Assembly (NCBI GenBank): GCA_025937895.1
Contig: JAICQL010000028.1
Location: 1-32,000, forward strand
DNA: 32,000 nucleotides
Direction of reading: 5' to 3'
From: Polyangiaceae bacterium
GTDB lineage: Bacteria > Myxococcota_A > Polyangia > Polyangiales > Polyangiaceae
The translations under genes were made by a program, and so were the position numbers. Under the pieces are notes generated by a model. The model did not search any database. It worked only from the letters and a program-made list of their open reading frames with translations, and was not told the origin of the DNA. Positions 6,588-27,898 of the stretch are shown here, in pieces (position 1 is the stretch's first letter; the number at the start of each line of letters is the position of its first letter).

Positions 6588-7426
6588 GACTCGGACACCA
6601 CTCGCAGACGGCGGTCGGGTAACGTGGCCTCCGCCCGGGCCCTGGCTGGAAACAGGTGTGAGGGGCGCACGTTGCCGAGCGCCGCGAACAGGTTGCCGCG
6701 TACGTGCGGGTTCTCCGCGTGCAGCTCACTGATCAGCTGCTTGACCCGCTGGCGCTTCAGGTTGTCCTGCGACCCACACAGATCACAGGGCAAGATCGGA
6801 AAGGCGCGCAGCGCCGCGTAGCGCGCGATGTCCTCTTCTGCCGAGTAGCACAGCGGACGGATCACGATGTGCGCGCCGTCGTCCGAGACCAGCCGCGGCG
6901 GCATGGCCTTGATCTGCCCCGCATACAGCAGGTTCATCAGCAAGGTCTCGGTCATGTCGTCACGGTGGTGACCGAGCGCGATCTTGTTGCAGCCCAGCCG
7001 CCGCGCCGTCGTGTACAGGATGCCGCGGCGCAGGCGCGAGCACAGCGAGCAATACGTCTTGCCCTCCGGCACCTTCGCCTTCACCACCGAATAGGTGTCC
7101 TCCTGCACGATCTCGAACGGGTACTGCTCCTGCTCCAGGTACCCGCGCAGCACGTGCAGCGGATAGCCCGGATGGCCCTGATCGATGTTCACCGCCACGA
7201 AGCTGAACTGAAAGGGCACCCGCGCCTGCAGCTGCCGCAGCAGATCGAGCAGCGTGTACGAGTCCTTCCCGCCGCTGATCGCCACCAGCACGTGGTCCCC
7301 CGGCTCGATCAGCCCGTAGTCACGGCTGGCCTGCGAGAGCTGCCCGAGCAGCCGCCGCCCGAGCTGCTGCCCATCGTCGCGCGCCGCAGCGGAGGGCGTG
7401 GACGCCCCTGGCAGAGCCTGTGTCAT
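6584..7426 (-). CDS. ttcA: tRNA 2-thiocytidine biosynthesis protein TtcA
   Basis: PP-loop AISGGKDSYTLL plus Cys motifs CSLCSRLRRG and CDLCGSQ. Start set at internal MTQALPG (7426) instead of 7612. Confidence 0.9.
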   Translation of the reverse strand: MTQALPGASTPSAAARDDGQQLGRRLLGQLSQASRDYGLIEPGDHVLVAISGGKDSYTLLDLLRQLQARVPFQFSFVAVNIDQGHPGYPLHVLRGYLEQEQYPFEIVQEDTYSVVKAKVPEGKTYCSLCSRLRRGILYTTARRLGCNKIALGHHRDDMTETLLMNLLYAGQIKAMPPRLVSDDGAHIVIRPLCYSAEEDIARYAALRAFPILPCDLCGSQDNLKRQRVKQLISELHAENPHVRGNLFAALGNVRPSHLFPARARAEATLPDRRLRVVSES

Positions 7427-7668
7427 GAGAGTGCCATTTTCCTGCAAATGCGGGCGCGAAGCCACCGTGGAGAGCGGCACGGCGGGCAGCACCAGCACTG
7501 CCGAGCCGAACGGCTCGAGCGCCGAGCTGCGCAGGGTTATGCCGCCATCGGCTGACTGGGGCAAGAGCACCCAACTGCCGGCGAGAGCGCGGCCTGCTCC
7601 GCTCCTGAACACACGTTTGCAAGGTAAAACCCACCGGAGCGAGCTGCCTTCCTGCCCGCGCTGGTGCT

Positions 7669-8343
7669 ATGTCGGCGCTCATGATCAACAGCGGCCATCT
7701 GGCGCAGCTGGCGTTCACCGTAGTGGCCGCCGCGGGCGTGTACTCCTTCCTCACCTCCGCCCGCGAGGGCGAGCGGCGGCGCATGTGCACTCCCGCGTGC
7801 GCGCTACGGCCGCAATACGCCAACAACAACCGCACCGCGCCCGACTTCGAGCTGCCCACGCTCGACGGCAGCACCAAGAAGCTGTCGGACTACCGCGGCA
7901 AGGTCGTGGTGCTGAATTTCTGGACCAAATCCTGCCGCCCCTGCCTGGAGGAGATGCCGGCGCTCGCCGACTTCGCCCGAGTGCTGGAGAAGGAGGGAGA
8001 CCTCCAGCTGCTGACCGTCAGCACGGACGAGTCGGTGGCCGATGCCCGGGACACCCTGCTCTCCGTGCTCGCCGGGGACCCTCCGTTCGTCACCTTCGTG
8101 GACACGGAGAACCAGTTCGTCAGCGAGAAATACGGGACCAAGCTCTACCCGGAGACCTGGTTCATCGACAAGCAGGGCGTGATTCGCGCCCGCTTCGACG
8201 GCGCGCGCGAGTGGATGAAGCCGCTCAACCTGGAGTTTGCCCAGTCGCTGCGCGGCCCCGCCACCTGCCAGGTCCAGTTCGACAACCAGGAGCCCATCGG
8301 CCCGTTCAAGGACGTCTGCAACGACATCCCGCTCGCCATCTGA
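7669..8343 (+). CDS. TlpA/ResA-like membrane-anchored thiol:disulfide oxidoreductase
   Basis: N-terminal TM helix LAQLAFTVVAAAGVYSFL. Thioredoxin-fold motif VLNFWTKSCRPCLEEMP (CxxC). Confidence 0.8.
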   Translation: MSALMINSGHLAQLAFTVVAAAGVYSFLTSAREGERRRMCTPACALRPQYANNNRTAPDFELPTLDGSTKKLSDYRGKVVVLNFWTKSCRPCLEEMPALADFARVLEKEGDLQLLTVSTDESVADARDTLLSVLAGDPPFVTFVDTENQFVSEKYGTKLYPETWFIDKQGVIRARFDGAREWMKPLNLEFAQSLRGPATCQVQFDNQEPIGPFKDVCNDIPLAI

Positions 8344-8374
8344 GCCGGGCCGCTCTTTGCTCGAGCTGCTCAGG

Positions 8375-8387
8375 TGTTCACTGAACA
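8375..8387. promoter_or_regulatory. perfect 6-1-6 palindrome TGTTCA-c-TGAACA (possible operator)
   Basis: Read directly from the sequence. It lies 58 nt upstream of the ATG at 8445 and 32 nt after the redoxin stop. Confidence 0.3.
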
Positions 8388-8444
8388 TCTGGACAGAGCC
8401 GCTAGCGCGCGCTATGTAGGGATCCCCCCTGCCTGGAGGTTCTC

Positions 8445-8720
8445 ATGCGTGTTGCTGCCATCTTGCGCCCCCTCGATGACGTGCCCGTGGATTTCCGAGC
8501 CGATCCCGACGGCACCTGGGATTTTGAAGCCCTTGCCGCAGCCGCAGGCTTTGAAGAAGCCTGGGGACAGATTTCCATCGGGGCCCTGATGGAGCCATAC
8601 CTCGGCTTCCCCGAAGGAGCCGCCGTGGTGCTGCTCAGCGCACCGGAAGAGAGCGCCATCGCGCTCGTCGATTGCACGGCGAGGGTGGAGCACCGCTACC
8701 AGACCAGCGCCGCAGCCTGA
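8445..8720 (+). CDS. small acidic hypothetical protein (91 aa)
   Basis: Strong SD GGAGG (8435-8439) sits 5 nt before the ATG. Asp/Glu-rich composition is unlike shadow ORFs. No family recognised. Confidence 0.5.
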   Translation: MRVAAILRPLDDVPVDFRADPDGTWDFEALAAAAGFEEAWGQISIGALMEPYLGFPEGAAVVLLSAPEESAIALVDCTARVEHRYQTSAAA

Positions 8721-8841
8721 GGCTCGCCGGGCCGAAGGGAGAAGGGGCTCGGTGTCGGGCGTCGACCGACCGACGCTAGAATGTGCCCGCTCGCCCAGCC
8801 CCCGGCGACCACGGCAATGCACGTCAGCCGCTCGCCGTGAG

Positions 8842-11286
8842 TCACTCAGCCAGCAGCGCTGCGAGCACGCCCGGCTCATTCCGTCGCAGCTCCACGACCG
8901 GCACCGCCAGACCCAGCCGGCGGAGCTCGGCGGCATTGCTGCCCGTGCTCGCATCCGGCGTGGGCGGCGCACTGAGCACCAGCACGTCGGGCGAGCGCCC
9001 CAGCGCTCGCAGCGCGTGCAGGGTGCTGGTGACGTCGTGCAAGACACCTAGCCGATCGGGAGCCACCAGCACCCAGCGGGCGTTGCCCAGCGCGCGAGCG
9101 AGCTCGAAGTTCGTCGTGCCGGCGCCCAGCGGGGAGAGGACTCCACCCGCCGTCTCTATCACCAGGGCTGGCAGCTCCGAGCTCTGACACCGCACTCGGT
9201 CCACCCAGGACGCGATGGCGTTCACATCGATCTCCTGTCCCTCGTGGTGCGCTGCCAGGGACGGGGCAATGGGCTCACGGAAGGCGTACAGCGGATGCGG
9301 CCGCGGGTGCTTCACCCGGGCGGAGGCCTGCTCCAGCAGCGCCGCGTCACCCCCGCACGGCTGCCCATCAGCGCTCGTCCCGCAACCCGTCTCGACCGGC
9401 TTCAGGCCCGCGACCGCGTGGCCCGACTCCGCCAGGATCCGGACCAGTGCGGCCGCGACATAGCTCTTGCCGACGCCGGTGCCAGTGCCCAGCACGATCC
9501 AGCGCTGCTGCGTGAACGAATCGTGGACGGTACGGGTGCGCGCGCCCAGCGCGAGCTGGGCTGGAGCGCTGGTGGAGGGAGGAGGCACCACCGAGGGCGA
9601 AGCGGCGCTGGCTGACGACGCAAGGTCGGGCTGCGCACGGACGCCGGACGGCGAGGCCACGTCGGGCGGCGAAGCGGCTGGCGGTGAAGCGAAGGAGGGG
9701 GCAAGGCCCGGCTGCGGTATTGAGGACGGCGAAGCGGAGACCGCCGAAGCGAGTGAGGGGGCGGCGAGTGGGGGCGCAGCGAGTGGGGGCGCAGCGCCGG
9801 GCAGCGTGCCGGCGGCTCCGGAGCGCTCGCTCGAGTCGGCAGGGTCGGCAGACTGCTCGCGCCAGGCGCTCAGCAGGGCAGAGCCCAGGAGCTCGAGCTC
9901 CGTATCTGTCATGTCCGCACGCAGAGAGATGCGCAGGCGCGAGCTGCCTCTTGGCACGGTTGGCGGGCGAATCGCCTGGGCTCGAACCCCGAGCTGCTCG
10001 AGCTGCGCCGCTGCCCGCAAGGTGGCGGCCTCGCTCCCGAACACCACGGGAAAGAGCGGCCCGTGCCTGCCGGCGGGCAAGGGGATACCGCTCGAAATCA
10101 GCTTACGCTCCAGCCGAGCAGCGAGCGCGCCCAGCCGCGTCCGGGCCCGGTCCGCGGTGCGCACCACCTGCAGATGCTCCTGCGCCCGCGCGCAGAGCCA
10201 CGGGCTGACCCCGGTGGAGAAGACAAAGCTCCGAGCACGGTTCCAGAGCCACTGCCGGTAACACCGCGCTCCGGCGACGAAGCCCCCCTGCAGTCCAAAG
10301 GCCTTGCCGAACCCACCCACCAGCAGGTCCGGCACCACCCCGACCGCTGCCGCCAGCCCCCGCCCCTCCGGACCAAAGACCCCCAGCCCGTGCGTCTCGT
10401 CGAGGATCAGCGCTGCCTGATGCTGGTTGCACAGCTCGCGCAACGCCGCGAAGTCCGGGCTCGTGCCATCCATGCTGAAGTAGCTCTCCGTCACCACCCA
10501 GCGCACCGTTCGCTCTGGGCGCGGACGAGCCAGGCCGACAGCGAGCGCATCCAGGTCCCGATGGGGAACCACCACCGTCTCCGCGCGGCTCAAGCGACAG
10601 CCGTCGATGATCGACGCGTGGTTCAGGGCATCCGAGAAGATCACATCGCTCGGCAAAGCCAGCGCGCTCAGAACCCCAACGTTCGCTGCATACGCGCTCG
10701 AGAACAGAAGGCTCGACTCCACCTCCAGCCAGGTCGCCAGCGCCGCCTCGAGCGCTTCGTGCTCGAGCGTCGTCCCTGACACCAGTCGCGAAGCGCCAGC
10801 TCCCAGCCGCTCCGCGCCCGCAACGTGTCCGCGCGTTTCACGTGAAACGCGTGGAACGAGCCCGCGCGTGGGCTCACGAGCTGCAGAGCCCTGGCCCACT
10901 TGACGCCACTCGCAGTGCGCCTCCCCGAGGCTTCCGTCACGCGGCTCCTGGTCCACCGTTGCGCCGGCTGTTTCACGTGAAACGTCGCCCCCGCGCGCCG
11001 ATTGCTCTTGGGCGCGCCCAGCGTCGCCGAGGCCTCGGCCAAACACCTCGCAAGCCAATCCCAGGTAGTCGTTCGACCGCGTGTCGAGCACGCTGCTCTG
11101 AGAGCCGCCAAAGTCCGTCCGGCCCTCCGCCGAGCGATAGAGCCCAGCGGCACGCAGCGCGTCTAGCAGCTCCACCAGCCGATCAGCAGCCCGCATCCCA
11201 CCCCGTGCATAGCGCATCAGCCCCTCCCCGGATACGGGCAGTGCCTGTCGAGCCAGCGGACGCGGCCCGCAGGTACCCGCAACCAT
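8842..11286 (-). CDS. bioF: fused 8-amino-7-oxononanoate synthase (BioF) / dethiobiotin synthetase (BioD), with a parS-bearing insertion in the BioF part
   Basis: BioF motifs NDYLGLA, GAGASRLVSGT, YFSMDG, GGFGKAFG and IRPPTVPRGSSRLR. A Pro/Ala/Ser linker of about 120 aa follows. Then the BioD P-loop WIVLGTGTGVGKSYV and a BioD-like body. The true start may be the Met at 11217. Confidence 0.85.
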   Translation of the reverse strand: MVAGTCGPRPLARQALPVSGEGLMRYARGGMRAADRLVELLDALRAAGLYRSAEGRTDFGGSQSSVLDTRSNDYLGLACEVFGRGLGDAGRAQEQSARGGDVSRETAGATVDQEPRDGSLGEAHCEWRQVGQGSAAREPTRGLVPRVSRETRGHVAGAERLGAGASRLVSGTTLEHEALEAALATWLEVESSLLFSSAYAANVGVLSALALPSDVIFSDALNHASIIDGCRLSRAETVVVPHRDLDALAVGLARPRPERTVRWVVTESYFSMDGTSPDFAALRELCNQHQAALILDETHGLGVFGPEGRGLAAAVGVVPDLLVGGFGKAFGLQGGFVAGARCYRQWLWNRARSFVFSTGVSPWLCARAQEHLQVVRTADRARTRLGALAARLERKLISSGIPLPAGRHGPLFPVVFGSEAATLRAAAQLEQLGVRAQAIRPPTVPRGSSRLRISLRADMTDTELELLGSALLSAWREQSADPADSSERSGAAGTLPGAAPPLAAPPLAAPSLASAVSASPSSIPQPGLAPSFASPPAASPPDVASPSGVRAQPDLASSASAASPSVVPPPSTSAPAQLALGARTRTVHDSFTQQRWIVLGTGTGVGKSYVAAALVRILAESGHAVAGLKPVETGCGTSADGQPCGGDAALLEQASARVKHPRPHPLYAFREPIAPSLAAHHEGQEIDVNAIASWVDRVRCQSSELPALVIETAGGVLSPLGAGTTNFELARALGNARWVLVAPDRLGVLHDVTSTLHALRALGRSPDVLVLSAPPTPDASTGSNAAELRRLGLAVPVVELRRNEPGVLAALLAE
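10834..10849. promoter_or_regulatory. parS: parS-like ParB-binding site 1 (inside bioF)
   Basis: CGTTTCACGTGAAACG has a perfect 14-bp core and matches TGTTTCACGTGAAACA at 14/16. It is part of a perfect 20-nt palindrome, 10832-10851. Confidence 0.8.
10969..10984. promoter_or_regulatory. parS: parS-like ParB-binding site 2 (inside bioF)
   Basis: TGTTTCACGTGAAACG, 15/16 to consensus. It lies 135 bp (45 codons) from site 1. Confidence 0.85.
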
Positions 11287-11611
11287 GCCCCGCCTCCATG
11301 AGCCGCGACCGCCAACCGGACTGCGCTCGCGCTCATGAGCCTGTCCAACGCCACGCCTGCGGCCAGACTGCCGCGTTCGAACCCGAAGCTGTCACTGGCC
11401 CGATCAAGTCCCTTGCCCGCTTCGCTCGCAGGCTGCGCTCAAACTTCGCGGCAAGGGACGTCGTCGTCTCGGCAGCGGGAGCGCGCCAACTCAGTCAAAG
11501 CTGCTGCCAGTGGGTGCGTCCACTGGATGCACCCGCGCCGCTAGCCAGCTTGCGCCCCCCGAGCGTGCCGCAGCCGGCGCAGGGCCTCCTCCGGGGGAGC
11601 GAGGTTGCGCC

Positions 11612-11627
11612 TGTTTCACGTGAAACT
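11612..11627. promoter_or_regulatory. parS: parS-like ParB-binding site 3
   Basis: TGTTTCACGTGAAACT, 15/16 to consensus. Confidence 0.85.
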
Positions 11628-12904
11628 CGGACCCTGTGCCGCAGCCTCGGCTCAGGCAGCCTGCCGCCGGCACCCAGAGCTTCCGATACGCAACCAGAGC
11701 AGGTCTCCGATGGCGGATCCCCTCCCTGGCCCGTCTCCATTGCGACCGCCAGGGCCACCCGCCTGCTTCCCTTAGCTGCGACCGCTCGCTGCATGCACAC
11801 CGGCCTTCTGCCGGCATTGAGGCGCTCCCGCGCCAAACGGTGAGCGCGCTCAACTCAGCTGCTAGCCCGTGGCCACGCACCGTCCAGCTCCAATGTCCCC
11901 CCAGCGTCAGGCCCGCTGAACCCATCAAGAGAGGCTTGCGGGCGCGGGCCTCGCACCACGCCTCGTTACCCCGCACGGCGCAAGGGGGCCAGCCGCGCAT
12001 CGCCTTCCCGCCGTCACGTGCCTTGCCCCACCTTCTCCCGTGGTCGCGCGAGACCCCGCGGACGGCCATAGAGTGTATAGGGGTCTCGAGTGGCGACCCG
12101 AAAGTGTGAGCCCCCGCCCGGTTCGTTCCCCGCTGAGACGCCGCGGCCTCCCACGCGGCCGTGCCGCGACGAATGGCAGCCCTGCCGGCGCCTGCCTTCG
12201 CACCGCCTCGTCTGAGCACCGACTGATAGACCCGCGCGCTGCCGGGAGGCCGCTCACGTTCCTTCGATTGGTCGCGTCACAGTCCTCTGCCTCACACGCC
12301 TTGGTTTCTCGTGCTTGACCTACCGCTGGCACGAGGACGAGCGAGCTCAGCAGCCGCTGTGCGCGAGCCTGCAGGCAATGGCAAGCGCCTCGTCCCCGGC
12401 CGCGCTCGAGACGGCAAAATGCGACGCCCGGGACCGCGCGGTGCTGCTGGGGTTGCACGTGCCGCCACGGAGCGGAGCGGGGCGGGGCCGGCTCCCCGAA
12501 CCGAGCGCGGCCCCCTCTGCATCGCCTGGCCTCCGCCCTGAGTCCGGAGCCCTGCGCTGGCGGCCGGGCGCACTAGGCCCACTGGGCTGGGCGAGCGCGA
12601 AGGCTCCGCTCGGCCGCGGGAGAGCGGAGCGCCGCCGGAGGAAACCTTCCCAGCGCAGCCCGGGTTCGCCCCGGCGAGTATTCGGTCTCGCTCGCGCGGG
12701 CGTAAGCCTAAGTGCCGACCGCCACCCGACCGTCGCTGCTGCGCGGGGCGCACCTGCGCCTCCTCACCTTTGGAACGCAAACAATTCGGCCCGCGCTCCT
12801 CATACTCGCTTCAATCAGGCCGCGTGCTGTCTCCACGGGTGCAATGGCCCGCGAAGAGCGCCGAGGCGGGTGCTGCTGCTGCCGAGAGCGGGGCGCGCTG
12901 TCTT

Positions 12905-12920
12905 CGTTTCACGTGAAACA
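12905..12920. promoter_or_regulatory. parS: parS-like ParB-binding site 4
   Basis: CGTTTCACGTGAAACA, 15/16 to consensus. Confidence 0.85.
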
Positions 12921-13153
12921 CTCGGCGCGGCTGCGACTGCGTCGAGCGATCGCGGCGCCAGGTGCGACGCAGACGTATGCGCGGCAGCTGGTCTCCGCGC
13001 GGCGTCACCATCTGGATGGTTAGCGCCAGGCGAGCGCGACGGTCACGGGACGGAACGCGCCGAGCCTATCAATGGCCAATGGCCGAGCCGCCGCCGCCGG
13101 TGCTCGCGGATGTTCGGCGCTCGAACTGGCTCGGGCATTCACTGGGGGGGCCT

Positions 13154-13169
13154 CGTTTCACGTGAAACG
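13154..13169. promoter_or_regulatory. parS: parS-like ParB-binding site 5 (satellite unit)
   Basis: CGTTTCACGTGAAACG, perfect 14-bp core. Confidence 0.8.
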
Positions 13170-13294
13170 GACAAACCTGAGAGGTCCGCAGAAGACGCTC
13201 CTCGAGCCCATCAATGGCCAACGGCGGAGGCGCCGCCGCCAGTGCTCGCGACGTTCGGCGCGCAACCCGCCTCCGGCATTAGCGGGCGACCGCT

Positions 13295-13310
13295 CGTTTC
13301 ACGTGAAGCG
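13295..13310. promoter_or_regulatory. parS: parS-like site 6 (satellite unit, one core mismatch)
   Basis: CGTTTCACGTGAAGCG. Confidence 0.6.
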
Positions 13311-13439
13311 CACCAGCCGGAGACTCCCGCAGGAGGCGCTCTCCGGTCCTTGTCAACGGCCAATGGCCGAGCCCCCGAGGCCTCGGTGCCCGCGGCCGTT
13401 CGGCGCACAAGCCGGCTCGGCCATCACCAGGCGTCTGCT

Positions 13440-13455
13440 CGCTTCACGTGAAACG
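13440..13455. promoter_or_regulatory. parS: parS-like site 7 (satellite unit, one core mismatch)
   Basis: CGCTTCACGTGAAACG. Confidence 0.6.
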
Positions 13456-13587
13456 CGCCAGCCTGAGAGGCGCGCAGAAGGCGTTCCTCGGTCCTGTCAA
13501 CGGCAGTGGCCGAGCCCGCCGAGGCCCCGGTGCTCGCGGATGTTCGGCGCGCAAAACCGGCTCGGGCATTGGGGGGGCGGGGCCGTT

Positions 13588-13603
13588 CGTTTCACGTGAA
13601 ACG
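13588..13603. promoter_or_regulatory. parS: parS-like ParB-binding site 8 (satellite unit)
   Basis: CGTTTCACGTGAAACG, perfect 14-bp core. Confidence 0.8.
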
Positions 13604-13731
13604 GACCAGCCTGAGAGTTCCGCAGGAGGCGCTCTCCGGTCCTGTCAACGGCAACGGCCGAGCCGCCGAGGCCCGGCGCTCGCGAATGTTGGGCGCGCAA
13701 ACGTGCTCGGGCATTAGCGGGAGGGACGGTT

Positions 13732-13747
13732 CTTTTCACGTGAAACC
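13732..13747. promoter_or_regulatory. parS: parS-like site 9 (satellite unit, one core mismatch)
   Basis: CTTTTCACGTGAAACC. Confidence 0.55.
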
Positions 13748-13872
13748 GACCAGCCTGAGAGTCCCACAAGAGGCGCTCCCCGGTCCTGTCGACGGCCAAT
13801 GGGCTAGACGCCGAGGGCCGTGCTCGCGGCTGTTCGCGCTCACCGGGCTCACGCATTACCGGGTCACCCGCT

Positions 13873-13888
13873 CGGTTCCCGTGAAACG
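13873..13888. promoter_or_regulatory. degenerate parS-like site 10 (last, decayed satellite unit)
   Basis: CGGTTCCCGTGAAACG. The right half-site is intact; the left half has two core mismatches. Confidence 0.35.
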
Positions 13889-14913
13889 CACGAGCCCGAG
13901 AGTCGCTCCCCCTAACGCGGGGCCTCCAACCATCGACAGCCACGGTCGACATGAACTTTGCATCCGCTGCCTCACACGAGTCGCGGACACTGCGACAGCG
14001 TCAAGGCGTCCTCATTTGGGAGCTCACTCAACGGAACCTGCCACCCCATCCGAGACAAGCTTGCTACGCCTCGGCGGGGCTCACTGAGGCTGCCACCCCC
14101 ATCCTCGTCCTCCTCCCGCGAGTGGCTCCCCACATCGTCAGCCCGCCCGAGGGTGCGGCGGCAGCCGCCTCGCTTCCTTCGGACCTGTGCCGTGAGGCCC
14201 GTAGTGCGCTCTCGCTCTGCCTCAGCTTCGTCTCCCCCTCGTCGATGCTCCGGAGCGTGCAGCCGCTGCGGCACGCGAGCACCCACCCTCGTCGCGGCGC
14301 TCCGCGCCGGCTATCGTTGGTTGCCACCCGCGAGCGGCTAGCTCTCGAGAGAGCCGGTCGGCGCCCGCTGGAGCCGACCCGAGCAGAGCGCGCGGCGCCC
14401 GCGCCGAATCGACTTCTCCCCGTGGCAGCGCCGTGCGGCTGGACGGGGACACGCTGGAGCCGCACGCCTGCCGGCCGCACTCGCTCCAGGCGTGAGAGAA
14501 TGCCATCGTCAGGAAAGGAACGACGTACCCCCGGAAGTAGCGGAGCGGGGAGATGACCCAGACTAACCCGCGGGACAACGGTGACGGCAGCGTCCCGCGG
14601 AAGCCCGGCTTCCCGCGGCCATGGCTTCGGTGCGGCTCTGGCCACGGCTCCGACCCCGACGTCGCCTCGAAGCTCGGCACGGCCGCGCCGTCCGATGTCC
14701 GGCCCCCTGCCCACCGAGGTACCCTTCTTGGCCATGCAGCCCTTCGCCCAGCACCGTCCGAGAACCCGCTCCAACAAGGTCGCTTCGACGCCCAGCGACC
14801 CTCGCCGGAACTGGCTTCAACCAGCCGGAGCCAAGAAGGCTTTGATCCGAACCCGCGCCCTCATCTTCCGGCGCCCTGTCCGCCGTGCGCAGCAGCCGCC
14901 AATAGACGCTGAT

Positions 14914-14929
14914 GGTTTCACGTGGAACA
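14914..14929. promoter_or_regulatory. parS: parS-like site 11 (isolated)
   Basis: GGTTTCACGTGGAACA, 14/16 to consensus with one core mismatch. Confidence 0.6.
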
Positions 14930-14999
14930 ACCAGTAAGCCGCTGGGGCACGCAACCCCAGAGCTCGGCGTTCACCCTCTTACACGCGCACTCCCGGCCC

Positions 15000-15800
15000 G
15001 CCTGTCTGCGGACCTCGCCCGGTACTGGTGGGGGCCACGAACCTAAGCGTCGAATGCCGAGTCGCTGCGGTCCCACCGTCCTGGCGCGCACGAGAGCTGC
15101 TCGCGCGGACCCCTCCCGGCTCCAGAGTTCGTGGGAGCCTGAACAGCCTCCCTCCGGCTGCTAGAAGCCGAGTCACTGCCTGGACGCTGCTCCGGCGGGT
15201 CTGCCCGCGTCGGACCTCGCTGGATACTAGCGAGTCTTCCGGCACCTGAAGCCCGAGTCACCGCCCAAGCGGTCTCACCGGGCGTGGCGGCGGTACACGA
15301 GAGCCGTCACACCAAGCCATCGCCCGCCGCCGGACCTCGCTGCCTACCGAACAGCTGACGAGGCCGTGTCTTCCGGCACCAGAGGCCAAGTCGCTGCCCC
15401 GCAGGCCTCGCCGCCAGGGCCAGCGCCGCGAGCCGCTCGTTCGGCTCCTTCCGAGCGGGCCTCGATTACGGGACAGGCCGCGAGCCCTCACCGGAGCCAT
15501 TCGGCGCCCAAGCGGTCCACCGCCGCGGCCCGACGTTACGGGAGGAGATCACCGACCAATCCTGGCGGCGGCCTCGTTGAGTGCTCCACGGGTCGGAGTC
15601 CTTCCGACCACCTGCAAGGGCGATTCGCTGCCGAGCGGTCTACCGCAGTCGTCGCGTGAACGGTGCCACTCGCCCATGAGCAAGCGACGTGCGGACCGCG
15701 CGGCGTCTCCACCGCACACTTGGCGGTGAGCGGGTGACGACGAGGGAGGCCCGCCGGCGCCCAGATGGTCTGCTTCCGGCACCATCCTCGGCCCGCGTTG
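15000..15800. repeat. second, degenerate direct-repeat family (no parS)
   Basis: CGGACCTCGC occurs at 15009, 15211 and 15331. GTCTTCCGGCACC occurs at 15234 and 15368, with GCTTCCGGCACC at 15772. GCCGAGTCRCTGCC-like blocks occur at 15056, 15167, 15251 and 15384. Spacing is roughly 110-135 bp. Confidence 0.5.
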
Positions 15801-15866
15801 GCGACCACCCAGCGTGCTCCGGTGCATCCCGCCGCTGACGCACCGGCGACGGTCCGGCTCCACCCG

Positions 15867-15933
15867 CTGCGCTGGTGGTGACACCCCCTGCTCGGCCCCA
15901 CTGCGCTGGTGGTGACACCCCTGCTTGGCGCGG
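15867..15933. repeat. 34-bp tandem duplication
   Basis: CTGCGCTGGTGGTGACACCCCCTGCTCGGCCCCA (15867-15900) is followed at once by CTGCGCTGGTGGTGACACCCCTGCTTGGCGCGG (15901-15933). Confidence 0.8.
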
Positions 15934-16608
15934 GTGCGTGCATCCGGCGCCGCTCGAATGCGTTGGCCATTGCTGGCCGAGAGTGTCGGGCAGCGGAGAT
16001 GGACCTCGCCTCAGTGACAGAGCGAGCGGAGCCGCCGGAGCTCGGTGCCACCGCGGTGATGGCGGGCGCGGCGCTGGGCGCCTCAGGGGTGTCGAGTCAG
16101 AGCGCCGACTCGTGTCTGCCCCGCGCCCGTGGGCGCAGCGACGAAGGACCGGTCGTCGCCGGCTCGAGTTCCCGTTGACCGACCGTGCTTCACCAGTGCA
16201 TCGAGCGGCCAACCTCCCCAAAGCCAGCCACTCGGCTGGCTCGCACGAGGGCAGTGGTCAACCGCCCACGCTCCTGTCGCCCCGCTCTGCGTCGAGTCCC
16301 GCGGCGCGGACACGGCCTCCGAGCAAGCACTATCACTGCACTGCTGGCCTTTCACTCCGACCTCGGATCACGTCCTTGGCGCTGATCACGCTGCGTGGAC
16401 TGAGTGATCACGATGGGCGGAACGCCCAACCTTCGCTACGCCCGTTACCGCGAGGTGGCGTGCGCCGGATGCTTCCCGCAGCCGGCAGCACCCTGCCGCG
16501 TCGGCCCAGCGCCATCCCCGATGCGCTCGCCATGGTCTCCCTCCCAGCACCAGGAGCCCGCGCCGCTTCGCCACTCGCGCGCGCGCACTTTGCTCGGCTG
16601 ACCGGTCC

Positions 16609-16668
16609 TTATCTACCAGCATGCATCCACAGCTATCCCCCAACTATCCACAGCCTGTGGACAGGCTG
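16609..16668. promoter_or_regulatory. cluster of DnaA-box-like 9-mers with overlapping palindromes
   Basis: Compared with TTATCCACA: TTATCTACC (16609, 7/9), GCATCCACA (16623, 7/9), CTATCCCCC (16633, 6/9) and CTATCCACA (16644, 8/9). TGTGGACAG (16656) is the reverse complement of CTGTCCACA (7/9, or 8/9 to the high-GC variant TTGTCCACA). This is locally the least GC-rich stretch of the desert. Palindromes TCCACAG-c-CTGTGGA (16647-16661) and CAGCCTG-tgga-CAGGCTG (16651-16668) overlap. Confidence 0.35.
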
Positions 16669-16813
16669 GGGATGACCTGCTCCGCCTTCCCACCCGGGCT
16701 CCGCACGGATTACTGCTCGCTTGTCGAGACGACTCGCTCGACGGCTGCTCCCAGCGACGGTCCGCCGCGTTCCCTCGGCTTCGCTGGCCGCCGCAGGCGA
16801 CCCCTCCGCGCTC

Positions 16814-17140
16814 TCAGCCGGCGGGGGCAGCGGGCAACGGGTCGCCGTTTTCGTCGACTCCGTCGAGCGCTTCGTTCACTCGCTCGAGCAGCTGGCGCAA
16901 CATGGCCTCAGCGCCGTCCAGATCCGCGCGGCGCTGGGCGCGCTCCTGCTCCAGGTCGTGGGCGAGCGCCATCGCGACGAGCAACATCGCCTGCGGGTGC
17001 GACGTGCGATCGGTGCCCGTCAGCGCGCGCAGGCGCTCGTTCACCACGCCGGCGTAGCGCTGCAGCGTCTGCTCGCCGGAGGAGGCGACCAGGCGATACG
17101 ACTGGCCCCCTACACTCACTTCCACGGCGGGGCGCATCAT
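16814..17140 (-). CDS. zapA: cell division protein ZapA
   Basis: From the internal Met: MMRPAVEVSVGGQSYRLVASSGEQTLQRYAGVVNERLRAL...LLVAMALAHDLEQER. Length (~108 aa) and pattern match ZapA. The upstream part of the tracked ORF is Arg-rich junk. Confidence 0.8.
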   Translation of the reverse strand: MMRPAVEVSVGGQSYRLVASSGEQTLQRYAGVVNERLRALTGTDRTSHPQAMLLVAMALAHDLEQERAQRRADLDGAEAMLRQLLERVNEALDGVDENGDPLPAAPAG

Positions 17141-18168: not shown

Positions 18169-19749
18169 TCAATCCATGCGCGCCAGATCGCCCGACAGCC
18201 GCACCAGCTCGCCGATCTCCAGGTTCCGGAACTCGATCTGCCCGGGCTCTCGCACCAGCACGAACTTGATGCGCTTGCCCTTGCGCTTCTTGTCCAGCTG
18301 CAGCAGCTCCGCGGCCTGCTCCAGCGGCTCTTCGCGCAGGTTCGTGGGCAAGCCGAGCCGCGCGAGCAGGCGAGTGACGCGCGCGACCAGCAGCTCCGAG
18401 GTCACGGCCAGGCGCTGGCCCAGGCGCAGCGCGGCCACCAGCCCCAGGCTGATCGCCTCTCCATGCGACAGGCGGTCAAAGCCCGCGGCTGCCTCCAGCG
18501 CATGACCGAAGGTATGCCCCAGGTTCAGCGCGGCGCGGATCCCTTGCTCGCGCGCATCCTGGCCCACGACTCGCGCCTTCACCCGGATCGAGCGGCGCAC
18601 CAGCTCCGCGGTCACCCCGGGCTCGCGCCGCAGCACCGCGGGCGCCTGGCGCTCCACCAGCTCGAGCAACCCTGGATCGCCGATCAAGGCCGTCTTCACC
18701 ACCTCCGACAGCGCGGTCATGCCCCGCGGCGGCTCGGTCGCGCAGTAGTCCACGTCGCAGAACACTGCCGACGGCTGCCAGAACGCACCGACGCAGTTCT
18801 TGGCCTGGCCGAGATCGACCCCCGTCTTGCCACCCACGGAGGCGTCCACCATGGAGAGCAAGGTGGTGGGCAGCGCCAGCCAGGGCACGCCGCGCATCCA
18901 GCTGGCCGCGGCAAAGCCGGTGATGTCCGTCACCACCCCGCCGCCCAGCCCCACGAACAAGCTGGAGCGATCGGCGCCGAGCGCGCTGGCGCGCTTCCAG
19001 ATAGTCTCCACCGTCGCCAGCGTTTTGTGCGGCTCGCCCGCGGGCAAGACGAGCAGCTCCACCCCGTCACCGCCCAGCGCCTCGCGCACGCGCGCGGCGT
19101 GCAGCGGCGCCACGTTGCGATCGCTGATCAAGAGGATGCGGCTGCGCCCGTGGGTCCACTCCGGCAGGCGCTGGCCGGCAAAGCCGGCGCCGATCTCGAC
19201 GGCGTACGAGTGCTCTCCGGCGGCCACCGCCACCCCGTCTCGCTGCCACAGCTCCAGCGCCCGCGCGGCCAGCTCCTCAGGGGCGCGACCCGTGGTGTCG
19301 AGCCGGGCATGACACTCGGCATAGGCATTGGCGCGCTCCTCCAGCAGCTGCTCGACGTGCTCTGCCGCGCTGCCCGGCGCCAGCAGCGGGCGCTGCCCTG
19401 ACTGCCCTGCAACTCGCCGCAGGGTCTCGTCCACGTCGGCGACCAGCCCGAGCACGACCGCGCGATCGAGCGCCTTCAGGCGGCGCGAGCGCACCAGGAG
19501 GGCGCCACCCCCGAGCGCCACCACCTCGCGCCTGCCGGCCTCCAGCACCTCCTCCAGCGCCTCCGCCTCCCACTGCCGGAACGTGCGCTCGCCGTGCTGG
19601 GCAAAGATCTCGTGCACCTTCAGGCCCGCTCGGGCCTCGATGCGCTCGTCCAGATCCAGGAAAGGGCAGCCCGCGCGCTGCGCAATCAAGCGACCCACGG
19701 TGGACTTGCCACTCGCCATGAAGCCGTTCAGGAGCAGAGGTCGTTGCAT
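18169..19749 (-). CDS. aroB: bifunctional shikimate kinase / 3-dehydroquinate synthase
   Basis: AroK Walker A LLLNGFMASGKSTVGR at the internal Met (19749). AroB motifs GGGVVTDITGFAAA and NLGHTFGHALE. Confidence 0.9.
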   Translation of the reverse strand: MQRPLLLNGFMASGKSTVGRLIAQRAGCPFLDLDERIEARAGLKVHEIFAQHGERTFRQWEAEALEEVLEAGRREVVALGGGALLVRSRRLKALDRAVVLGLVADVDETLRRVAGQSGQRPLLAPGSAAEHVEQLLEERANAYAECHARLDTTGRAPEELAARALELWQRDGVAVAAGEHSYAVEIGAGFAGQRLPEWTHGRSRILLISDRNVAPLHAARVREALGGDGVELLVLPAGEPHKTLATVETIWKRASALGADRSSLFVGLGGGVVTDITGFAAASWMRGVPWLALPTTLLSMVDASVGGKTGVDLGQAKNCVGAFWQPSAVFCDVDYCATEPPRGMTALSEVVKTALIGDPGLLELVERQAPAVLRREPGVTAELVRRSIRVKARVVGQDAREQGIRAALNLGHTFGHALEAAAGFDRLSHGEAISLGLVAALRLGQRLAVTSELLVARVTRLLARLGLPTNLREEPLEQAAELLQLDKKRKGKRIKFVLVREPGQIEFRNLEIGELVRLSGDLARMD

Positions 19750-27764: not shown

Positions 27765-27839
27765 TTGCCGCGCGACCTCGTTGCCGCGCGGCCTCGTTGC
27801 CCTGACGTGGTTGCCCCGACGTGGTTGCCCGCGACGTGG
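27765..27839. repeat. five tandem TTGCC-initiated short repeats in a divergent promoter region
   Basis: TTGCCGCGCGACCTCG (27765-27780), TTGCCGCGCGGCCTCG (27781-27796), TTGCCCTGACGTGG (27797-27810), TTGCCCCGACGTGG (27811-27824) and TTGCCCGCGACGTGG (27825-27839). A degenerate TTGGCGCGAGACGT follows. Confidence 0.75.
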
Positions 27840-27898
27840 TTGGCGCGAGACGTTCCGGCTTGACGTCCCGCGGGGCCCCGGGGCATCCGAAGACTGCC

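Follow-up and report, generated by a model that had tools for sequence, protein, structure and literature searches.

A probable ParB-loading zone of eleven parS-type palindromes at the bioFD locus of an uncultured Polyangiaceae bacterium

About 10 dispersed parS sites are found in the origin-proximal part of the Bacillus subtilis chromosome, and in this species as well as in Streptomyces coelicolor many of the sites are located inside coding sequences, like two of the sites described here. In both species these origin-proximal sets extend over distances of tens to hundreds of kb and are not known to stem from local tandem amplification. The total for S. coelicolor is 21 sites (table in PMC7022226). 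A much denser arrangement has been reported for Myxococcus xanthus, where 22–24 parS sites are present in 3 kb, are bound by ParB in vitro and are located about 30–35 kb from oriC (Harms et al. 2013, PMC3778016; Iniesta 2014, PMC3899335). We found comparable arrays in loci from M. eversor (L059), Myxococcus sp. (L001) and Corallococcus (L004), in stretches of 4–6 kb without coding-like ORFs; these arrays are in part made up of tandem units of about 140 bp (136–138 bp in M. eversor). In all three loci parA is located 2–4 kb from the array, and in L059 and L001 it is followed by parB. The literature searched yielded nothing on parS in Polyangia or Sorangium, nor on parS sites embedded in bioF.

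Here, we analysed a stretch of 32 kb (the window) from a chromosome of the Polyangiaceae (Myxococcota). The host is an uncultured soil myxobacterium. A pattern count over the window revealed 11 copies of GTTTCACGTGAAAC, six of them perfect, four with one mismatch (13296, position 13; 13441, position 2; 13733, position 1; 14915, position 11) and one, at 13874, with two mismatches. All copies are located between 10835 and 14928 (about 4.1 kb) and the rest of the 32 kb contains none, showing that they are over-represented and localised, not dispersed, within the window. By chance 0.01 matches are expected, and none of 100 shuffles attained 11. These data bear out the first-pass annotation, which had listed six perfect 14-mers (their starts are its 16-mer starts plus 1) and one decayed copy, and had considered such a recurrence not to be due to chance. 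It had also reported four copies with a single core mismatch; the number is correct, but the mismatches are at outer positions, outside the CACGTG core. In the universal parS consensus tGTTNCACGTGNAACa, a 16-bp palindrome, positions 4 and 11 are free according to the consensus logo, and one half of the variant at 14915 reads GGAAC as in the M. xanthus consensus; therefore seven sites in the window are perfect, three have one outer mismatch and one has two. The features of the locus are compiled in Table 1.

Table 1. Features of the bioFD-zapA region (window coordinates).
Feature	Position	Strand	Basis or remark
bioF-bioD fusion (8-amino-7-oxononanoate synthase and dethiobiotin synthase)	8842..11196	-	Pfam Aminotran_1_2, AAA_26; NCBIfam bioF, bioD
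Expanded BioF loop	10800..11055	-	between SNDYLGL and GAGASRLVSG motifs
parS site 1, perfect 14-mer, in bioF	10835..10848		pattern count; orthologue of the relatives' single bioF-loop parS
parS site 2, perfect, in bioF loop	10970..10983		second in-frame VSRET copy
Gene-free spacer, about 5.5–5.6 kb, 70% GC, nine parS sites	11197..16813		no codon-position GC signal
parS site 3, perfect, solitary	11613..11626		palindrome alone matches 145-bp unit model
Decayed parS-like half-site GTTGCACGTGCCGC	12452..12465		scan with positions 4 and 11 unconstrained
parS site 4, perfect, solitary	12906..12919		pattern count; comparison with 145-bp unit model
Six tandem units of 141–148 bp, one parS each	13065..13904		TRF, unit alignment, nhmmer
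parS sites in the tandem units	starts 13155 (perfect), 13296, 13441, 13589 (perfect), 13733, 13874 (decayed)		
parS site 11, GTTTCACGTGGAAC, solitary	14915..14928		one half-site of M. xanthus type
zapA, right boundary of spacer	16814..17140	-	Pfam ZapA; gene call on near-identical Logan contig L125

The identification of the palindromes as canonical parS, already proposed in the first-pass annotation, is strongly supported by their exact match to the consensus, their strict clustering and the retention of an orthologous site in bioF in six related loci. Judged from the sequence, we consider it about 80% probable that all eleven are parS sites and together form a ParB-loading zone, i.e. a centromere, on the chromosome of this uncultured member of the Polyangiaceae, of the kind found in M. 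xanthus. It is very improbable that the palindromes resemble parS only by coincidence and are in fact a REP- or MITE-like repeat or operator sites for some unrelated regulator that binds CACGTG. It is true that six copies ride on a tandem unit with a second conserved inverted repeat and that a ParB gene is not seen locally. However, the parS consensus is matched over the whole 14–16 bp, the solitary sites have just the palindrome in common with the 145-bp unit, and this unit occurs only in tandem in the window and never in the relatives, not at many unrelated places as expected for a REP or MITE. In addition, neither the remaining 28 kb of the window nor any of 26 distant bioF loci contains the motif; these loci served as negative control (a metagenome search with the BioFD body, in which all relatives returned had at most 42% identity). 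Arrays of this motif adjoin parA-parB in the Myxococcus and Corallococcus loci that we fetched.

Arrays with many parS sites are already known and are widespread. Our survey, a single scan of genome contigs, returned at least 120 loci; among the matches listed, 68 of 120, from many phyla, have at least seven sites and 29 of 120 have at least ten sites in 8 kb. Head-to-tail arrays were found in Zimmermannella faecalis (L099, 23 sites at about 150 bp), Bdellovibrionota (L079, 25 sites at about 50 bp) and a Bacilli MAG (L037, 15 sites at 36 bp). Their sites are canonical parS as in the window, but the unit sequences and genomic contexts are unrelated, and we found no published description of dense tandem arrays of this type from other phyla in the literature searched. 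Multi-site clusters, described in the first-pass annotation as known in a few lineages, are thus not confined to such a small number, and the density of about one site per 370 bp, which that annotation had regarded as striking, is below that of M. xanthus with 22 sites in 3 kb. What is unusual here is that the seed of the array is embedded in a coding region and that the array is not next to par genes.

With the sets of B. subtilis and S. coelicolor the window array has the consensus and the presumed function in common. The Myxococcus arrays come from the same phylum and likewise have at least ten canonical parS sites within a few kb without coding-like ORFs. The window array matches this type in having at least ten sites in a few kb of gene-free, partly tandem DNA, but it is not located immediately upstream of parA-parB(-bactofilin). 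Whereas the Myxococcus arrays are found 2–4 kb upstream of parA-parB-bactofilin, the array in the window adjoins zapA and bioFD. Furthermore, the half-site consensus is TTTCAC in the window and TTCCAC in M. xanthus, the sites are less densely spaced, there is no homology between the repeat units, and in the window two of the sites are codons of an enzyme gene.

This gene, bioFD, most likely starts at 11196 (MRAADRLVELL...), as suggested by alignment of its N-terminus to relatives; 11217 and 11286 are further candidates. In the minus-strand reading frame, the parS sequence GTT TCA CGT GAA AC encodes Val-Ser-Arg-Glu-Thr, and the sites at 10835 and 10970, which are 135 nt (45 codons) apart, are both in frame. 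The loop that contains them has about 83 aa, compared to 18 aa in solved BioF (query residues 55–137 versus residues 72–89 of 3wy7 in the PDB alignment). It is predicted to be disordered, with AlphaFold pLDDT values below 50 for residues 55–129 and above 90 for the body. V-S-R-E is always written GTT TCA CGT GAA, with codons that each make up 3–7% of their family in the window, and the joint probability of this rare codon choice is 4e-6. VSRET is present at exactly the same loop position in 27 of the best 120 BioF N-terminal homologues. The parS in the bioF loop thus appears to be under constraint at the DNA level. The region is not the simple intergenic repeat cluster it had first been taken for: two sites are in-frame bioF codons and nine are located upstream of bioFD in a gene-free spacer.

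A comparison of the syntenic locus, suggested by the first-pass annotation, revealed that six related loci of the Polyangiaceae have a parS at the orthologous position of the bioF loop (L121 at 8853, L122 at 16442, L123 at 13159, L124 at 14003, L127 at 10133 and L128 at 10181). It is a perfect 14-mer in the window and in L122, L123, L124, L127 and L128. The coding sequences flanking it are only 65–81% identical, the spacers cannot be aligned, and the blastn alignment between the window and L122 terminates exactly at parS site 1. Relatives have only 1–3 sites at the locus, and more distant ones a single parS; the exception is the sister MAG L121 (GCA_035760985.1). This MAG resembles the window in the locus, the ancestral bioF-loop site and the total number of sites (ten), but differs in that all ten sites are inside the bioF reading frame, whereas in the window two are coding and nine are upstream. 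Its loop is enlarged by 544 in-frame codons bearing the ten sites, with spacings that are all multiples of 3 and without any stop (open-frame shuffle probability 8e-4). The complete L121 ORF comprises 1215 aa, compared to 647 aa in the annotated form. A protein search with the L121 insert returned one irrelevant match, suggesting that such an insert is absent from other called proteins. L121 also has a second bioF N-terminus upstream of its array; no counterpart of it was found in the window, and the spacers of the two genomes show no similarity in blastn, although their flanks are 70–81% identical.

In the spacer of the window, six sites belong to a tandem repeat, for which TRF reports a 144/145-bp unit with 5.9 copies and 76% matching. 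Column identity in the unit alignment averages 81%, compared to about 95% within the 16-bp parS (manual count). According to inverted-repeat pair counts each unit also carries a 9-bp inverted repeat, GGCCGAGCC...GGCTCGGNC, which might be a site for a second protein. Compensatory changes are limited to this repeat, and templated mutation between its arms could explain them equally well. A structured RNA was considered for the six units; the covariation term of RNAalifold is positive, i.e. unfavourable, and thus does not support it. With the 145-bp unit as query, nhmmer found exactly six copies, all in tandem, and none in the relatives. The repeat-driven architecture described in the first-pass annotation therefore applies to these six sites; the other five are solitary or in-gene.

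Repeats of this kind raise the question of assembly errors in a metagenome-assembled genome, either in the tandem part or throughout the long spacer. A Logan contig from this organism, assembled from short reads, extends only about 290 bp into the spacer, the search for an independent contig had no result, and a metagenome scan with a window-specific 31-mer gave no match. Nevertheless, an artefact is highly unlikely: with about 19% divergence among them, the six units do not represent collapsed or duplicated reads, an array of comparable size is present at this locus in a related MAG, and the five solitary or in-gene sites are independent of the repeat.

The array at this locus is a mosaic. 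Its oldest element is the in-frame parS in the BioF loop that is predicted to be disordered; it has been conserved throughout the family, with a single duplication in this genome. Nine more sites accrued in this lineage upstream, in the spacer, six of them by tandem amplification of the 145-bp unit. The palindromes are kept by selection and the DNA between them drifts.

Apart from parS, the search for further elements in the spacer yielded little. Ten ORFs examined as possible hidden genes had no Pfam match, there were no tRNA genes, and Rfam gave no match in the spacer at the gathering threshold or at E<=1, nor a 6S RNA downstream of zapA. The promoter and terminator scan yielded no signal above that of shuffled sequences. 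A 290-aa gene called in the spacer of L122 is probably spurious: it is Arg/Pro-rich, lacks a Pfam match and has no homologue in the window or the other relatives. The spacer was also considered as oriC, and this was rejected: it has no DnaA-box cluster (one DnaA-like box versus 0.58 expected) and no AT-rich stretch, and dnaA and dnaN are not among the annotated genes. The window shows no GC-skew switch, gidAB is likewise missing from the annotated genes, and an origin signature is thus not seen in these 32 kb. The flanking genes ddl, aroKB, zapA and bioFD have housekeeping functions, thus the locus is chromosomal.

As the first-pass annotation had stated, parA and parB are absent from the window (none within 10.8 kb to the left or 17 kb to the right, using Pfam on confident genes and tblastn with Myxococcus ParA/ParB), and the same tblastn search found none within ±10 kb in the six syntenic relatives. 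This would fit an auxiliary locus, at which the sites bind ParB but serve as extra SMC-loading site, ParB reservoir or modulator of the biotin genes, with the main centromere beside parAB elsewhere. More distant relatives retain a single site here, the nine spacer sites are located where the promoter of bioFD must be, and in P. aeruginosa the binding of ParB to intergenic parS leads to repression of the neighbouring genes (PMC7022226). However, repression would need just one parS, and 10–11 sites equal or exceed the whole-genome totals of most studied species (table in PMC7022226). In addition, two sister lineages, that of the window and that of L121, amplified independently to 10–11 sites, which suggests selection for loading capacity and not for the regulation of one operon. 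We therefore regard a merely auxiliary role as unlikely and favour a centromere. Since relatives have only 1–3 sites at the locus, other and possibly larger parS clusters may be present elsewhere in the genome, and this locus is perhaps not the only or the main centromere.

Following established ParB biology, dimers of the cognate ParB, whose existence is assumed here, would bind to the individual 16-bp palindromes and, with CTP bound, form closed clamps that slide onto the flanking DNA. A large number of sites at short distances would increase the loading rate and give rise to one large partition complex, which ParA would then move and position. SMC is probably loaded at the array too.

With this cluster, multi-parS centromeres of myxobacteria would extend to uncultured Polyangiaceae, and linkage to parAB is not a requirement for arrays of this kind. 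The comparison between relatives is more useful than the cluster itself, with one ancestral coding-embedded site that would be retained for its DNA sequence, and two sister lineages that arrived at about ten sites in different ways, one through a non-coding tandem array and the other through an in-frame expansion of an enzyme gene. Tentatively, and with slightly less than even confidence, we propose that local tandem amplification gives rise to the centromere arrays of this family and drives their turnover, with a single ancient parS in the bioF coding sequence as the seed, and that selection for ParB-loading capacity on the DNA can override protein economy. Five rare codons (VSRET) would have been fixed in the enzyme loop and doubled in this genome, and in the sister lineage the loop would have been inflated by 544 in-frame codons with ten sites; in the window the demand would have been met by the non-coding 145-bp array instead. 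The locus would offer a natural system to study how many ParB-loading sites a large chromosome needs and how fast bacterial centromeres turn over, and a clean example of a DNA-binding-site constraint that dictates protein sequence.

Pattern search of the 32-kb window with the parS palindrome GTTTCACGTGAAAC confirmed that the cluster is real: six perfect copies, four with one mismatch and one with two were found against a chance expectation of 0.01, and no further copies are present elsewhere in the window. The first-pass annotation had correctly listed four single-mismatch copies but placed their mismatches in the core, whereas all mismatched copies deviate at outer positions. At 14915, the variant half-site reads GGAAC, resembling the M. 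xanthus consensus. The absence of parA and parB from the window was likewise upheld, since neither Pfam nor tblastn with Myxococcus ParA and ParB detected a par gene there.

Features of the locus (window coordinates)
Feature	Position	Strand	Basis
parS GTTTCACGTGAAAC, perfect	10835, 10970, 11613, 12906, 13155, 13589		pattern search
parS, one mismatch	13296, 13441, 13733, 14915		pattern search
parS, two mismatches	13874		pattern search
144/145-bp unit, 5.9 copies	13065-13904		Tandem Repeats Finder
bioF-bioD fusion (bioFD)	8842-11196	minus	
BioF N-terminus (…TRSNDYLGL)	11181-11056	minus	
Spacer bioFD-zapA, ~5.6 kb	11197-16813		
34-bp direct repeat, 2 copies	15863-15929		
zapA	16814-17140	minus	
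aroK-aroB fusion (aroKB)	18169-19719		
14-15-bp unit (GTTGCC..GACGTG), ~five tandem copies	27765-27848		

The genes flanking the array are housekeeping genes: UDP-glucose dehydrogenase, ddl, bioFD, zapA, aroKB, a response regulator, ubiA and cinA. Two biosynthetic fusions, bioF-bioD and aroK-aroB, lie on either side of the locus; the more distant relatives L127 and L128 carry bioF and bioD as separate genes. Homologues of the AroK-AroB fusion are labelled Polyangiaceae, and a 100% identical protein is encoded on short Logan contigs, one of which (L125) corresponds to window positions 20603-16521 at 99.3%. The spacer between bioFD and zapA appeared non-coding on every test: it lacks a codon-position GC signal, ten of its ORFs gave no Pfam match, Rfam returned nothing even at E ≤ 1, and promoter and terminator motifs are not in excess. 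Its region contains one DnaA-like box (0.58 expected) and no AT-rich stretch; at about 70%, its G+C content equals that of coding DNA and of the window (~70%). A sigma-70-like promoter match is absent from the spacer, even though transcription of bioFD must start there. The 34-bp direct repeat (91% matching) is located in the parS-free part. Elsewhere, the 14-15-bp repeats in the divergent intergenic region between a ubiA-family and a fumarylacetoacetate-hydrolase-family gene may be an operator array.

Part of the array is built from tandem 145-bp units. Alignment of the six units (A1) gave a mean column identity of 81%, while the parS within them is about 95% conserved. Comparison of the window with its relatives found this unit in the six window copies only. 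Each unit also contains a 9-bp inverted repeat, GGCCGAGCC ... GGCTCGGNC, with arms about 42 nt apart (A1 columns 33-42 with 84-92). Three compensatory changes preserve its pairing, a score matched in only 4 of 500 shuffles; RNAalifold did not support an overall structure of the units. The repeat could be the site of a second protein, a hairpin, or the product of templated mutation between the arms.

The sites at 10835 and 10970 are read as codons of bioF. The frame runs from the N-terminus through both, each encoding V-S-R-E-T, and into GAGASRLVSGT…, with a spacing of 135 nt (45 codons). Residues 55-137 of the window BioF stand in for 18 residues of a solved BioF (3wy7), and AlphaFold gave pLDDT >90 for the enzyme body and <50 for residues 55-129, which places both coding sites in an expanded, probably disordered loop. 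The codons used, GTT, TCA, CGT and GAA, are rare in the window, at 3-7% of their respective families (joint probability 4e-6); the DNA motif thus dictates the peptide and not the reverse. Among BioF N-terminal homologues, 27 of the best 120 have VSRET in this loop; cultured Sorangium and Polyangium lack it.

Six syntenic loci (aroKB-hyp-zapA-bioF/D) were compared. AroKB identity to the window is about 70% in L122, L123 and L124, and L127 and L128 are more distant; each has one perfect parS at exactly the same bioF loop position. A second parS inside bioD, read F/L-H-V-K, is found in L122 (17911), L123 (14475) and L124 (15547); L123 has a third, and there zapA directly adjoins bioFD without a spacer. 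Both the window (ASARVKHP) and L121 (ASLDMKPP) retain the bioD site only in decayed form, which shows that parS loss accompanied gain of the array.

Among the relatives with a long contig, L121 (NCBI MAG GCA_035760985.1, contig DASTRX010000067.1) is the closest (AroKB 82% identical). All ten parS at its locus lie within the bioF reading frame: the bioF-bioD ORF (7071-10718, 1215 aa) has a normal BioF N-terminus, after which an insert of 544 codons separates the SNDYLGL motif from GAGAARLISG. Each of the nine parS spacings is divisible by three, and the insert has no stop in the bioF frame versus 1-17 in the others, an openness reached in 0.08% of shuffling trials (P ~8e-4); coding-type GC3 is absent from it. 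The existing annotation covers the downstream 647 aa only and would miss the conserved N-terminus. The window spacer does not align with this region, and the flanks are 70-81% identical. With the 145-bp unit likewise confined to the window, the two sister lineages must have arrived at 10-11 sites independently, each by its own route. That the tandem part is an assembly artefact is very improbable, given the 19% divergence between units and the similarly sized array in L121.

In M. xanthus, 22-24 parS sites in ~3 kb, located ~4 kb upstream of parA and 30-35 kb from oriC, are bound by ParB in vitro (PMC3778016; PMC3899335). Our scan of species-representative genomes for three parS cores 130-160 bp apart returned at least 120 loci from many phyla; among the 120 listed, 68 have at least seven sites and 29 at least ten, with a maximum of 25 (per 8 kb). 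Dense tandem arrays among these matches include Bdellovibrionota L079 (25 sites at ~50 bp), Zimmermannella faecalis L099 (23 at ~150 bp) and the Bacilli MAG L037 (15 at 36 bp), and others in Planctomycetota, Acidobacteriota, Flavobacterium, Microbacterium and CPR MAGs. The Myxococcus and Corallococcus loci resemble the window in having 4-6 kb without coding-like ORFs, partly in 136-138-bp tandem units, and the window array therefore belongs to an already known kind. Unlike it, they adjoin parA, with parB next in the Myxococcus loci and then a bactofilin gene in M. eversor (L059); the Cystobacter fuscus array adjoins gidA-gidB. What sets the window array apart is its distance from parAB, a seed site embedded in coding sequence and a repeat unit that is not homologous to theirs. 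A non-ParB palindrome or REP-like element is a very unlikely explanation: the 145-bp unit is confined to its six copies, 26 distant bioF loci contain no parS, and the Myxococcus/Corallococcus arrays adjoin parA.

The analysis shows the sequence identity of the sites, how they cluster, that purifying selection acts on the palindromes, and the array's history; the reading as a parS array and putative centromere, as proposed initially, is well supported computationally; an auxiliary or regulatory ParB cluster is a rather unlikely alternative. If the putative centromere follows established ParB biology, each palindrome would nucleate one ParB dimer, CTP binding would shut the clamp, and the clamp would slide off the site. 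Many sites would then mean more ParB loading and one large partition complex, serving ParA-driven segregation and SMC loading. The locus owes most of its interest to the seed site embedded in coding sequence and to evidence of rapid, convergent array growth, not to its site density.
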